The notes under the pieces were generated by a model. The model was not told the origin of the DNA. It worked only from the letters and a program-made list of their open reading frames with translations, and searched no databases. DNA of 64,000 bases from contig NW_026865611.1 in NCBI RefSeq assembly GCF_026571515.1, positions 62,001-126,000 on the forward strand, read 5' to 3'. A program made the translations under genes and the position numbers. Positions within the stretch are counted from its first letter, which is position 1. Each line of letters begins with the position of its first letter. Shown here one piece after another: positions 43,501-46,036 of this stretch. The DNA is from Ruditapes philippinarum (lineage: Eukaryota).

Positions 43501-46036
43501 TATGGCTTTGAAACTTTGCACACTTGTTCACCATCATTACCCCAACCTGTAACAGGAGAAGGTAACTGTAACAAGCATTTTTTTTTTACTATCAAGCACT
43601 AAGAATAGCCGAGAGTTGCTGTCTTACCGACAGCTCTTGTTATCATAAGTAAAGCCCAATTCCCTGTTTTTGTCTGATGATACATCTTTTCTTGATACTG
43701 TTTTGTTTCTCTCATAGGATTATCAGTATTTAAGGTATTCAGGCTGTATTAAGTATAGCCTATCCATAAATTAATATTTCCTTACAATAATGAGATCATG
43801 GTGAAACACACCTTCTTAAGTGACTCGGGATCAAGTAAACTAAGACTAAGGTATTACAAAATTATTTACCCTATATTTGTTCATATTTAACCATTTCAAT
43901 TAGATCCCTAATCACAGCAAATCACACACAATAACTTACTAAGATCCACAACATTTATGATTTCAGTTTGTTCCGATGAGAAATTTTGTGAACAGAAATG
44001 AACAAAACTTTCAGTTAGCACAAGCTGCCCTTGCTAAAGAAGTTCTGGCTGAGGTGCCGGACCAGGTTACGGCCTATATGAAACAAAACAGTATCTTCCC
44101 TAAACAACGTCAACCTGCCACAGCTCCCCCACCTTACCAGTCATAAAGTTAACATCACAAATAATCATGTAAGATATTATTTATAAATTACTATGTTTTC
44201 TTTAGTTTAAAAATATGTTGATAAAAAATATGGTTCGTATAAAAAAAACTCTGTGCTTATTTATTCTTTTCAGAAAAAAAACCAGACATTTTTTTGCTCC
44301 CCGAAAAATTTCGGGGGAGCATATAGTCGCCGGGTTGTCCGTCCTTCCGTCCGGCCGCACTACCGAATAGGGATAGATGGCCATCTAACTATAAACGGAA
44401 TAAAGGAGAACAATAGAATTCATTCTGTAACAATAGAATAAGGGGCCATGGCCCTCTATTAAACAAAAGAAAATAACAATAGAAATGGCCCTTTATCTCA
44501 ATTTAGTCGGAAGTCTGTCCGTAAGTACGTACGTCCTGAATTGTGTCCGGCCCATAACTTTGTTATTTGAAGTCGGATTTTACAACTATTTCACAGAAAT
44601 GATCACCATATTGAGACGACATGTAGCACGCAACATTTGGGTCGCTACCTTGAAGGTCAGAGTGTTACCCTGTTCCACCCGTCCGTCATTCCGTCATCAT
44701 CAGTTTCCGTTCATTATCTTAGTAATGGTTGCACACATTCAACTCAAATTTGACATATTGATATATCATGAGAAAATACAGCTCAAGTTCGAATTTGGTC
44801 ATGGACCGATGATTTTTGACAGAGTAATGCCCCTTAATGAAATTTTTAGTTTCCGTTCATTATCTCCCCTTTAGTATTACATATTCAACTCAAATTTGAC
44901 ATATGGATACGTCAAAGAAATGTGCAGGTCAAGTTCGAATTTGGTCATGGTTCGATGATTTTTGGCAGATTTGTGCCCCTTTCACTTTGAAAATGATATG
45001 AAATTTTCAGTTTCCATTCATTATCTTTCCAACGGTACAACACATACAACTGAAATTTGACATATGGATACGTCAAAGTAATGTTCAGGTCATGTTCGAA
45101 TTTTGTCATGGTTTGATGATTTTAGGCAGAGTTATGCGCCTTTCACTTTGAAAATAATATGAAATTTTCAGTTTCCATTCATTATCTCCCCAATGGTTGT
45201 ACACATTCAACTCAAATTTGACATATTCATACATCTTAGGAATAAGCAGTTCAAGATGGAATTTGGTTGTGGTTCAATGATTTGGGGCAAAGTTTTCTCT
45301 CTTGAATGTTGGAAAAATTTGAATTTTTAGTTTCAGTACTCATAGTTTTGTAGAAATGTACATAGTCATTATTTTGGCTACACATAAGCAATATGCAATT
45401 TACAAAAGGTTAACACTGAATAGTTTCAGTACTTAACACTGAATAGTTTCAGCACCTTGAACTTTGTATTAAAATGGTTTGTGTTTGCATTGAACAGTTT
45501 TAAGGGCTTTGAACTTAAAATGAAAAAAATAGTTTGTGCAAACAAATTTGGAACAAAATATTGTAACATCTGAAACTTTGGCTGCATGCGGTGGCATCTG
45601 TAGCGTGATGACACATTTCTAGTCTAATGTTAAATTAAATTGTAAATATAACCATTCAAGTTTAAATGGTGAAAAATGGCAAAAGTACACAGCTTCTCAT
45701 TGTGATATTTTTAATGGCAGGAATGTGGGAAAAATGGTGTTAGACCCTTTATAATTCGTAGAATGTCGGTTATCAAAATGAATGTTTTTGTTAACATTTT
45801 TCTGTTGATCTTTTCTTTCATAGTTTAATATTTATCTTGTTCCTTTTTTTTTACAGTTTGTACCATTTCGAGATTTTATCAGTCGTATGGGATCACAGAA
45901 TCCCCAGATTTCACAAGCAGCATTAGCAAAAGAAGTTCTAGCAGAGGTTCCTGACCAGTTGGTGTCTTTTATGAAGATGAATGGAATCAAGCCTAGACAG
46001 ACAATACCTGCTAGTGCTCCGCCTCCATACTCTTAA
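22567..46036 (+). CDS. CPNE8: Copine (copine-5/8/9-like; C2A-C2B-vWA), 554 aa, 20 coding exons with alternative last exon
   Basis: Exons: 22567-22646, 24496-24583, 26874-26977, 27289-27328, 27846-27919, 28633-28664, 29316-29344, 29886-29989, 30868-30972, 31426-31467, 32213-32288, 32875-32931, 33589-33650, 34916-35071, 37107-37179, 40120-40247, 41089-41191, 42189-42246, 42839-42912, then 43967-44146 or 45857-46036. All introns are GT-AG, phases are consistent, total 1665 nt. Motifs: [93 protein letters not shown]. The symbol is the nearest vertebrate-like name. Confidence 0.93.
23328..24147. mobile_element. 820-bp non-autonomous hAT-like DNA transposon with 6-bp TSD
   Basis: Perfect 12-bp TIR CAGGGATTTACC/GGTAAATCCCTG; ACTATA on both sides (23322-27, 24148-53); subterminal GACGCAG/CTGCGTCC motifs. 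Confidence 0.8.
24637..24800. mobile_element. Palindromic MITE (family P1), right arm truncated
   Basis: TGAGCCGCGCCACGACAAAACCAAC... matches the 5544 copy and stops where the 60-bp array begins. Confidence 0.8.
24806..25210. repeat. Minisatellite, 60-bp unit built from ~20-bp subunits, ~6.5 copies
   Basis: TGTAGTATTTGTTTTTAGTATGAATGTACTGTGATTTAAATGTATTTGGTATAAATTTAT repeated in register. Confidence 0.88.
25231..26738. mobile_element. Degenerate pogo/Tigger-like non-autonomous DNA element
   Basis: TACAG.AAAC...CTTATAGC left end, ...TTTATTACTGT right end, and repeated GTTCCTTATAACC-like subterminal motifs at both ends. Confidence 0.45.
28195..28480 (+). mobile_element. tRNA-derived SINE (another family)
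   Basis: A box TGGCCTAGTGGTTAAG, B box GGTTCGAGCCCC, followed by a non-tRNA body; 3' boundary is approximate. Confidence 0.6.
29432..29769. mobile_element. Kolobok-like MITE (TTAA TSD); a partial relative lies at ~46285-46430 downstream of copine exon 20b
   Basis: TTAA-AGCAGCTAGCTTTCAGAT ... ATCTGGAGGCATGCAGCT-TTAA (13/18 inverted match); GAAATATTTTGGCT.ATCTGGAGGCATGC.GCTT is shared with the ~46400 copy. Confidence 0.55.
30080..30760. repeat. Dispersed repeat (possibly Crypton-like non-autonomous family); relatives at ~33695-34020 and ~47670-47860
   Basis: Shared blocks CATACCCG...AAAATGGTA, GGGTATGTGATAAA.AGAATAT, TTCAA.AAATT.AG.ATTGAA. Confidence 0.45.
35146..35405 (-). mobile_element. 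tRNA-derived SINE (family S2), near full length
   Basis: Head GGGCGTCCATGGCCGAGTGGTTAAGGTCGTTGAC...GAGTTCGAAT; GGGCACCTGAGG core; AAAC tail; possible AATCAG TSD. Confidence 0.85.
37260..37940 (+). mobile_element. HINE-like element with ~143-bp core repeats (~3.3 copies)
   Basis: 5' TTTATATGCCTCCCTTC..GAAGAGGGGGTATAT hairpin, (GTCC/GTCT) microsatellite, GGGGTCACTAGGTCAAAGGTCA units, 3' end ...TTTCTTGTT. Confidence 0.75.
38613..40020 (+). mobile_element. HINE-like element (pearl/DINE architecture) with ~165-bp core repeats (7 copies)
   Basis: T-run then GCTCACCTG subterminal inverted repeat paired with CAGGTGAGC at ~39982; GTCC microsatellite; AAATAAAAGCCCTGGGGTCAAAATTGGCCCC units; 3' palindrome AGGGCCATCATGGCCCT then CTTGTTT. 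Confidence 0.88.
41012..41089 (+). repeat. Perfect 3x 26-bp tandem repeat containing the copine exon-17 splice acceptor
   Basis: (TGATATAAATTATTGTATTGATCAGG)x3; AG dinucleotides end at 41036, 41062 and 41088. Confidence 0.95.
41392..41528. repeat. Long imperfect palindrome (~60-bp arms), probable end of a Crypton-like element beginning ~41250
   Basis: GTTATAAAGATTGTTGACA...AATATAACC [loop] GGTTATATT...TGTCAACAATCTTTATAAC. Confidence 0.7.
41823..42180. repeat. 30-bp minisatellite, 12 copies, abutting the copine exon-18 acceptor
   Basis: Unit TTTTATGTTCACAATCATATATCATGTTTG; explains spurious ORFs 41792..42238, 41848..42228 and 41882..42115. Confidence 0.95.
43036..43641 (+). mobile_element. 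HINE-like element with 164-bp core repeats (3 copies)
   Basis: TTTTTAGCTCGACTATTC start, (GCGTCT)n microsatellite, units at ~43149/43313/43477, 3' hairpin GCTGTC..GACAGC then TCTTGTT. Confidence 0.85.
43967..44146 (+). CDS. Copine alternative terminal exon 20a
   Basis: tttcag|[59 protein letters not shown]. Confidence 0.88.
   Translation, partial: FVPMRNFVNRNEQNFQLAQAALAKEVLAEVPDQVTAYMKQNSIFPKQRQPATAPPPYQS
44289..45623 (+). mobile_element. Composite HINE-like insertion (two families plus a nested ~150-bp MITE) between copine exons 20a and 20b
   Basis: TGCTCCCCGAA..TTCGGGGGAGCA hairpin plus GTCC microsatellite; insert at ~44362-44510 with imperfect inverted ends; second family from ~44660 with ~160-bp CAGTTTCC.TTCATTATCT units; ends GACACATTTCTAGT. 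Confidence 0.72.
45857..46036 (+). CDS. Copine alternative terminal exon 20b
   Basis: tttttttttacag|[59 protein letters not shown]. Confidence 0.9.
   Translation, partial: FVPFRDFISRMGSQNPQISQAALAKEVLAEVPDQLVSFMKMNGIKPRQTIPASAPPPYS

Follow-up and report, generated by a model that had tools for sequence, protein, structure and literature searches.

Two duplicated alternative last exons in a clam copine gene encode isoforms whose PPPY tail probably docks WW-domain ligases

The window analysed here, a 64,000-nt stretch of the Ruditapes philippinarum genome (contig NW_026865611.1, positions 62,001 to 126,000, forward strand), carries a copine-8-like gene of 20 exons with two duplicate last exons at its 3' end. 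Exons were placed by exact peptide matches of the RefSeq proteins P0007 and P0009, which gave 19 blocks from 22567 to 42912 for the common part of the gene. None of the upstream copine exons mapped beyond 46100.

22567..42912, + strand: 19 common coding exons (residues 1-495), encoding C2A, C2B and most of the vWA/Copine domain
42839..42912, + strand: penultimate exon, ending ...RDIVQ; its GT donor at 42913, in phase 0, serves both last exons
43967..44146, + strand: proximal last exon A (residues 496-554 plus stop), RefSeq isoform X2, XP_060571546.1
44114..44137, + strand: PATAPPPY of exon A, with a PPxY and a non-canonical ATAP, in a predicted-disordered tail
44147..44290, + strand: likely 3' UTR, the unique A/T-rich flank of exon A, with variant poly(A) hexamers only
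45857..46036, + strand: distal last exon B (residues 496-554 plus stop), RefSeq isoform X1, XP_060571545.1
46007..46030, + strand: PASAPPPY of exon B, by translation; the C-terminal end reads PASAPPPYS and then the stop

The encoded protein matched Pfam PF00168 twice and PF07002, in the C2-C2-vWA order of copines, and its fold matched that of BON1 (6kxk; E = 1.5e-58). The Arabidopsis plant copine BONZAI1 (6kxk, 6kxu) shares this fold over the whole length at 39% identity. The clam sequence has the acidic Ca2+-binding loops in its two C2 domains as well as a MIDAS-like motif: it contains YDVD (92), WDWN (226), DFTASN (308) and ITDG (434) together with segments at 31 and 162, to which these roles are putatively assigned. 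Ca2+-dependent phospholipid binding, a trait of copines, is predicted for the clam protein.

Exons A and B each measure 180 nt including the TAA, fit the GT donor after 42912 in phase 0, and are directly preceded by canonical acceptors (ttcag and tacag, respectively); the translation of exon A begins FVPMRNF. They are homologous, match in length and phase, have separate acceptors and stops and share one donor, and each on its own exceeds the Pfam Copine cut-off of 27 bits (30.2 and 31.6 bits). The earlier note had described two intact 180-nt paralogous last exons, and these indeed lie where it placed them, preceded by AG and in frame. With one B codon dropped for the alignment, the exons agree at 37/58 residues and 108/174 nucleotides, and 21 of the 37 identical residues are encoded by different codons. 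The comparison of dN/dS type that had been proposed between the exons gave pS 0.73 and pN 0.28, with synonymous sites near saturation. Together with the conserved residues encoded by differing codons, these values identify the pair as an old duplication under purifying selection and not a product of chance.

The pair is old and conserved, as seen from its occurrence in the RefSeq proteins of four clams and in Logan proteins. An assembly artefact, in which A and B would be an uncollapsed allele, was rejected on the basis of their 62% nucleotide identity and the presence of the pair in several species. Across taxa, identity averaged 73% for A-to-A, 62% for B-to-B and 61% for A-to-B comparisons. 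A duplication confined to Ruditapes was also rejected (p-AU 0.005); a single origin of A (p-AU 0.35) or of B (p-AU 0.23) was compatible with the exon trees. These trees are poorly resolved, and B-to-B identity is no higher than A-to-B. Among the copine clusters compared, the alternative-last-exon pair occurred only in imparidentian clams: no alternative last exon was found among the members listed of ten further mollusc and brachiopod clusters (15 of 19 members for one cluster and 3 of 4 for another), and a region search for further clam orthologues added none.

Four orphan exon copies lie 3' of the gene in a tandem duplication, one of them within the window and three further along the contig; a distal copy, A', lies at contig position 138854. 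The earlier note was without these extra copies.

62828..63005, + strand: orphan broken copy of exon B, 90% identical to B in nucleotides, with a frameshift and a stop; part of the downstream tandem segmental duplication

No downstream copine exon was found besides copies of A and B.

RefSeq lists both isoforms, as models from automated annotation, for Ruditapes, where they match the window exactly, and for Mercenaria, Mya and Dreissena; the members of each pair diverge no earlier than residue 499 in Mercenaria, Dreissena and two Mya loci. The Logan proteins P0136 and P0138, from intron-free contigs of 1.7-1.9 kb, agree throughout residues 1-493 and diverge only in the last exon, providing transcript-derived proteins of both forms from a fifth taxon beyond the four named clams. 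A search of sequencing runs listed 24 for this species, none of them on record as RNA, which speaks neither for nor against expression. We also aligned four raw RNA runs to positions 42185-48200, a region in which intronic repeats dominate the alignments. Bin depths in the four runs were 5.1, 3.6, 0 and 0 for exon A, 10.0, 11.5, 0 and 0.5 for exon B, and 0.11, 0, 0 and 0 for the penultimate exon, and there was no exon junction among the 15 joints listed of 223, all 15 of which fell in intronic repeats. Because penultimate-exon depth was at most 0.11 and the joints lay in repeats, the reads over A and B are not creditable to spliced mRNA; they may come from the orphan copies or from unspliced RNA. 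Both isoforms are supported by the anatomy of the locus, by selection, by the annotation in four clams and by the Logan proteins. The use of exon B alone, with exon A a relic like the downstream orphan copies, is very improbable. Dead exon copies (C, B' and D) have indeed been shed at this locus, exon A has no canonical poly(A) signal nearby and the joints listed contained no exon junction. Exon A is nevertheless intact and better conserved between taxa than B; four species have it in their annotation, and one of the intron-free Logan proteins includes it.

The alternative C-terminal isoforms of the earlier note are supported, since RefSeq X1 and X2 map exactly and the pair recurs in four other taxa, but its term 'mutually exclusive' does not apply to them, as A and B are alternative last exons of the poly(A) type rather than internal mutually exclusive ones. 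Under the definition given in the accessible text of PMC3228551 they do not form a Dscam-type internal cluster, since they are not flanked by further exons and both hold a stop codon. The splicing class is well known: homologous tandem 3'-terminal exons that have several poly(A) sites are described for human CAPZB and for tropomyosin (TPM1/Tm1/lev-11), and of 236 tandem-exon substitution events in human, 77 affect the C-terminus, according to the portions available of PMC3228551 and PMC9741552. The clam gene shares with the CAPZB type two homologous last coding exons served by one donor, ancient origin, conservative substitutions and the exchange of a C-terminal segment, and differs in encoding a copine; the main text of PMC9741552, in its accessible part, is without mention of CPNE. 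For human copine isoforms, the available part of a review of the family (PMC10968396) lists deletions and alternative N-termini only. The clam copine is a new case within the class.

The acceptor of exon A has a pyrimidine fraction of 0.65, against a gene mean of 0.64, and that of exon B a fraction of 0.90, higher than all 18 constitutive acceptors (maximum 0.80). The variant hexamers in the exon A flank are TATAAA (44182 and 44238) and GATAAA (44220); the first AATAAA after exon A, at 44399, lies inside a repeat, and the first one 3' of exon B is at 47018. The cell would likely select one exon by a choice of 3' splice site coupled to the poly(A) site, with exon A as the regulated proximal choice, judging from its average acceptor and the lack of a nearby canonical hexamer, and exon B as the default, judging from its strong pyrimidine tract. 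The alternative 3' UTR ends proposed for A and B may follow from such a choice. When competing RNA pairings were scanned in five region pairs with 40 shuffles each, only the pairing of the donor-proximal intron with the region upstream of A was stronger than every shuffle (-22.9 vs -16.9 kcal/mol), in an observed scan that used twice the control's windows, and B had no rival pairing. A competing pairing of the docking-selector type was not accepted, given this lax control and the missing partner for B.

Besides the tail, the exons supply the last part of the vWA domain. In the AlphaFold2 model the exon-encoded segment comprises the end of a strand (494-498), three helices and then a predicted-disordered tail (residues 544-554, pLDDT < 50). 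Differences between A and B fall mostly in the vWA end and the linker rather than in the motif, and the residues specific to type A (Arg10, a Gln in the N-terminal loop segment and the Arg after xP[KR]x) are kept in 5/5 taxa.

Both tails keep the PA(T/S)APPPY that the earlier note had read in them, and the codons for A(T/S)APPPY differ between A and B at 4 of 6 identical residues. The PPxY lies in an exposed, predicted-disordered and conserved segment, with patchy conservation across bivalves. It is present in at least one exon in 5/5 taxa with the pair, in both isoforms in 2/5, and in exactly one exon in the other three (Mya, Dreissena and the Logan taxon); in the PPAY of Dreissena only the x position is changed. 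The motif is absent from the oyster, mussel, scallop and unionid orthologues, and is therefore dispensable in much of Bivalvia; many orthologues terminate right after TAPP or SAPP, without the Tyr. The retention attributed to the PPPY tail thus holds insofar as the tail is predicted to be disordered and is selectively retained, but retention in both exons is confined to those two taxa, and no PPxY occurs in the pteriomorph and unionid orthologues. Single-exon gastropod relatives carry (T/S)APPPY and vertebrate copine-8 carries PPPY, so the motif predates the duplication. Vertebrate CPNE8 and CPNE5 share the C2A-C2B-vWA layout, 61-65% identity and a PPPY tail (PAPPPY[TS]PP) with the clam protein; they differ in lacking (T/S)AP before PPPY (PPxY in 18/18 distinct copine-8/5 tails, [TS]AP in 0/18), and in the body tree they group with the clam paralogue C6581, so that the relation is not 1:1.

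We consider it probable that the two intact last exons yield two 554-residue isoforms whose disordered PPPY tail docks WW-domain ligases. The available text of PMC8509885 states that PPxY motifs of the NEDD4 interactome tend to be disordered and exposed; it also reports a PPxY in 11.7% of human proteins, and that the presence of the motif does not guarantee binding. We found no literature linking a copine to PPxY/WW binding, and the matches listed contained no study of this clam gene or motif, including CPNE8 with the NEDD4 family or a copine with ESCRT; the one paper found to name both a copine and PPxY does so in unrelated passages. No CPNE or copine entry occurs in the supplementary text of PMC8509885 (5 files) or of PMC2824488 (3 files), and a PDB sequence search with exon A returned nothing relevant. 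A less likely, though possible, alternative is that both isoforms are made with a Pro-rich tail that is no WW ligand, the conserved element being the (S/T)APP core, which binds another partner; the functional difference would then, just as tentatively, be confined to the vWA end and the 3' UTR. Among distinct short invertebrate tails, [TS]AP occurs in 24/55 (2.9 expected from shuffles, a test that ignores kinship and so overstates significance) and PPxY in 10/55, which favours this alternative, as do the orthologues that stop after TAPP or SAPP and the type-specific residues of exon A. Against it stand that inflated enrichment and the Tyr itself, present in at least one exon of every paired taxon and also in gastropods and vertebrate copine-8.

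Ahead of (T/S)AP the residue is variable (A, P, L, G or S). This species has ATAP and ASAP, so that the P(T/S)AP core of TSG101-UEV ligands is absent from both its exons, and across the five taxa canonical P(T/S)AP occurs in 1/10 exons. A TSG101 reading is therefore weak: the A(T/S)AP variant itself was correctly noted before, and its interpretation as a late domain of the P(T/S)AP type loses ground. In the fuller version of that interpretation, A(T/S)AP recruits TSG101/ESCRT-I and PPPY recruits NEDD4 in calcium-triggered membrane repair, which we regard as distinctly unlikely. It draws on the enrichment of [TS]AP in copine tails, with canonical P[TS]AP in 10/21 long invertebrate tails (2.0 expected), on the canonical exceptions (PSAP in Mya exon B, PTAP in Ostrea edulis) and on a Met95-equivalent pocket residue in clam TSG101. 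Schlundt et al. 2009 reportedly gave a relaxed UEV consensus, (A/P)(T/S)AP. M95A is a PSAP-binding mutant of TSG101 (PMC13442042, in part), and a proteome of plasma-membrane injury includes copines, while copine-4 binds ALG-2 (available part of PMC5037681). On the other side, 8/9 exons having the core begin it with A, L, G or S, vertebrate copine-8 tails have no [TS]AP, and the accessible sections of two papers describe canonical PSAP as a weak binder that needs avidity (PMC13442042) and the ASAP of Tacaribe virus Z as playing no role in self-budding, which is TSG101-independent (PMC3509680). Ebola VP40 (PTAPPEY) and arenavirus Z (PSAP/APPY) likewise overlap (T/S)AP with a PPxY-type motif at a flexible terminus, in the excerpted text of PMC3509680; the clam motif differs in having Ala for the first Pro and in belonging to a cellular protein.

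Under the preferred reading, WW-domain docking, Ca2+ would drive the copine to the membrane, where its PPPY tail would likely dock the WW domains of NEDD4-family ligases; the NEDD4, ESCRT and membrane-repair link of the earlier note is a hypothesis. Because both forms carry the PY tag in Ruditapes, exon choice would there mainly swap the 3' UTR and the vWA surface (helix 500-503, loop 504-509, helix 525-535 and linker), and the choice would additionally switch the PY tag on or off in Mya, Dreissena and the Logan taxon. A broader and rather doubtful extension would make copine tails an unrecognised Ca2+-triggered docking platform for the ubiquitin and ESCRT machinery, with PPxY (vertebrate copine-8 included) for the NEDD4 family, (S/T)APP for TSG101 and, in a paralogue, PPYP repeats for ALG-2; it is similarly doubtful that the duplication made the PY tag a splice-controlled switch in some lineages through reciprocal losses from exon A or exon B.

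As both protein forms are already in automated database annotation, the splicing event alone is modest. The pair has nevertheless been kept across several clam lineages, and the presence of the PY tag in one form only in 3/5 taxa provides a natural experiment. It draws attention to a motif in copine tails that vertebrate copine-8 also carries and on which we found no functional study. If binding to NEDD4-family ligases is true, the motif would offer a testable link between calcium-driven copine recruitment and ubiquitin-dependent trafficking.

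The copine gene in this window carries two duplicate last exons of equal length, exon A (proximal) and exon B (distal), both lying behind the same phase 0 donor. The gene and its upstream neighbours are:

22567-46036, + strand: copine gene, from the window sequence
end at 42912, + strand: penultimate exon, GT donor, phase 0
43967-44146, + strand: exon A, 180 nt, AG acceptor, TAA end
45857-46036, + strand: exon B, 180 nt, AG acceptor, TAA end
14125-16170 with 11707-13365, + strand: long ORFs from a glycosyl hydrolase family 31 gene (Pfam PF01055, PF21365), with an N-terminal hydrophobic segment, upstream of the copine gene
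2147-3385, + strand: LINE-type reverse transcriptase fragment (PF00078), broken across frames

When aligned, exons A and B agree at 37 of 58 residues and at 108 of 174 nt (pS 0.73, pN 0.28; the corrected ratio of ~0.13 is unreliable, as dS is near saturation). Different codons are used at 21 of the 37 identical residues and, within the A(T/S)APPPY tail, at four of the six, indicating that what is conserved is the peptide rather than the DNA. The Ruditapes RefSeq proteins match the window exactly, with 19 common exons followed by exon B (isoform X1) or exon A (X2). The pair is thus already present in automated annotation; it is real, old and under selection, and is a further case of a known class, homologous alternative last exons. 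Of 236 human events that involve tandem-duplicated exons, 77 are C-terminal (PMC9741552, excerpt), and alternative 3'-terminal exons, chosen via poly(A) sites, are distinguished from true mutually exclusive exons (PMC3228551, excerpt).

A search with exon A retrieved a copine-8-like protein of Mercenaria, whose cluster (n = 5) comprised Ruditapes philippinarum X1 and X2 and Mercenaria X1-X3. Pairs differing in the last exon occurred in three of ten further clusters, those of Mya, Dreissena and a Logan taxon, and none was found in the other seven (Pecten, unionids, two oyster clusters, Mytilus among 15 of 16 members listed, Liolophura and a mussel-like cluster) or, among the members listed, in ten additional copine clusters. 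The two Logan proteins, P0136 and P0138, are unbroken frames on 1.7-1.9 kb contigs, identical over residues 1-493 and differing solely in the last exon; they are the most direct transcript evidence for both forms, in a species other than Ruditapes. The Mya arenaria pair was annotated at two near-identical loci (P0010/P0130 and P0129/P0131), which differ by one residue and each have both last exons, representing either a gene duplicate or an uncollapsed haplotype. The proposal in the earlier note that last-exon choice yields two C-terminal isoforms is therefore borne out, by the exact mapping of X1 and X2 and by the pairs in these four other taxa.

In a tree of the common protein body, all pair-bearing taxa fell in a single clade (100/99), with unionids as sister. 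Mean exon identity across taxa was 73% for A-to-A, 62% for B-to-B and 61% for A-to-B comparisons, the A/B assignment in Dreissena and the Logan taxon being by sequence likeness rather than genomic order. A duplication private to Ruditapes was ruled out (p-AU 0.005); a single origin of A and a single origin of B were each compatible with the AU test.

The pyrimidine fraction of the B acceptor (0.90) exceeds that of all 18 constitutive acceptors (mean 0.64), that of the A acceptor is average (0.65), and the unique 3' flank of A holds variant poly(A) hexamers only. These signals would fit a regulated proximal exon A and a default distal exon B. When four raw Ruditapes RNA runs were mapped to 42185-48200, nearly all reads fell in intronic repeats, as did all of the 15 joints listed of 223. 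Repeats at 43036-43640 and 44290-45600 attract hundreds to thousands of reads from elsewhere and confound mapping here. In two runs depth was low over both last exons and almost zero over the penultimate exon, so that these reads do not demonstrate splicing to either exon, and junction use in Ruditapes rests on the RefSeq models.

A search of the clam's own genome revealed four additional copies of the last exons on the same contig, C14098, all with upstream copine exons absent; they are given here together with a reverse-strand frame of the window:

inside the window: copy C, with a frameshift and a stop
C14098:138854-139033: copy A', with intact acceptor and frame
same contig: copy B', with acceptor AG changed to TG
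same contig: copy D, with a stop
53130-54557 of the window, - strand: intronless coiled-coil and NHL-like frame (Pfam NHL E 0.002, below the cut-off)

The last of these, which we take to be TRIM-like, belongs to a tandem unit that also carries the copine 3' end, with at least six more copies near contig positions 131-134, 146-148, 163, 171-173, 187-189 and 204-207 kb. Since the orphan exons lie in these repeated units, alongside the reverse-strand frame, they are likely passengers of the adjacent tandem expansion. Copy A' differs from exon A at 2 of 180 nt in the exon versus 11 of 141 in the 3' flank (Fisher p = 0.003), and its homology to the intron preceding A stops ~45 nt 5' of the acceptor; the same exon-versus-flank test was not significant for B' (p = 0.10). 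The low divergence of A' could reflect gene conversion or occasional use as a third, distal last exon.

The A isoform, modelled with AlphaFold2 from 57 sequences (mean pLDDT 85), matches BON1 along its whole length. In this model, the last exon supplies the final part of strand 494-498, the vWA helices 500-503, 510-521 and 525-535, and a tail (544-554; pLDDT under 50) containing the motif. The A and B translations share an invariant centre of 15 residues, their differences being concentrated in the first 18 residues, the last helix and the linker.

Other copines carry different tails. A paralogue, XP_060559061.1 (C1107:28866-29774), has a 240-residue Gly/Pro/Tyr tail with six PPYP, 17 YP and a PPPTY end, resembling the type-1 motifs through which ALIX and annexins A7/A11 bind ALG-2 (PMC5037681, excerpt). 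Mercenaria, Mya, Mactra and Mytilus have copine tails like it. A third mollusc group (P0059, P0042, P0049, P0050, P0054, P0079 and kin, with a paralogue on contig C6581) has a highly conserved tail, PPLQRQLTISS..SLP.SEQ, without PPxY, in which basic RxxT/S sequences are presumably kinase-site-like.

Among the five pair-bearing taxa, PPxY occurs in exon A of four, exon B of three, both exons of two and at least one exon of all five. That the motif is retained in both forms, as the earlier note proposed, is true of the two venerids, whereas in Mya, Dreissena and the Logan taxon only one form has PPxY: the Mya B tail ends in PSAPPPVR, Dreissena B lacks a Pro-rich tail (its A has PPAY), and the Logan A form ends in GSAPPL. 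The Tyr is absent from oyster, mussel, scallop and unionid orthologues. The single-exon gastropod relatives Littorina and Nucella have (T/S)APPPY, which suggests that the motif probably predates the exon duplication. PPxY was found in 18/18 distinct vertebrate tails, 10/55 short and 12/21 long invertebrate tails, and [TS]AP in 0/18, 24/55 and 20/21 (shuffle expectation 1.3, 2.9 and 6.5); with tails taken from the top matches of one search, grouped by hand and including non-independent kin, these enrichments are leads only.

The (T/S)AP core could also be read as a TSG101 ligand, a weaker reading than WW binding. The (S/T)APP core is widespread, the Met95-equivalent residue is kept in clam TSG101, and copines have been reported among the proteins of a membrane-injury proteome and as binding partners of ALG-2 (PMC5037681, excerpt), but Pro occupies the first position in only 1 of 10 exons, a viral ASAP variant has no role in driving budding (PMC3509680, excerpt), and canonical PSAP requires avidity (PMC13442042, excerpt). 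The excerpts of PMC11670305 and PMC3766686 hold nothing on Ala at this position.

The literature searched, with subscription journals mostly outside its coverage, yielded no study of either this copine gene or a PY motif in copines. The C-terminal PPPY, being disordered and conserved, is a good candidate for a WW ligand, although 11.7% of human proteins contain PPxY and its presence does not ensure binding (PMC8509885, excerpt). A link from the copine PY tail to NEDD4 is plausible, as a candidate.
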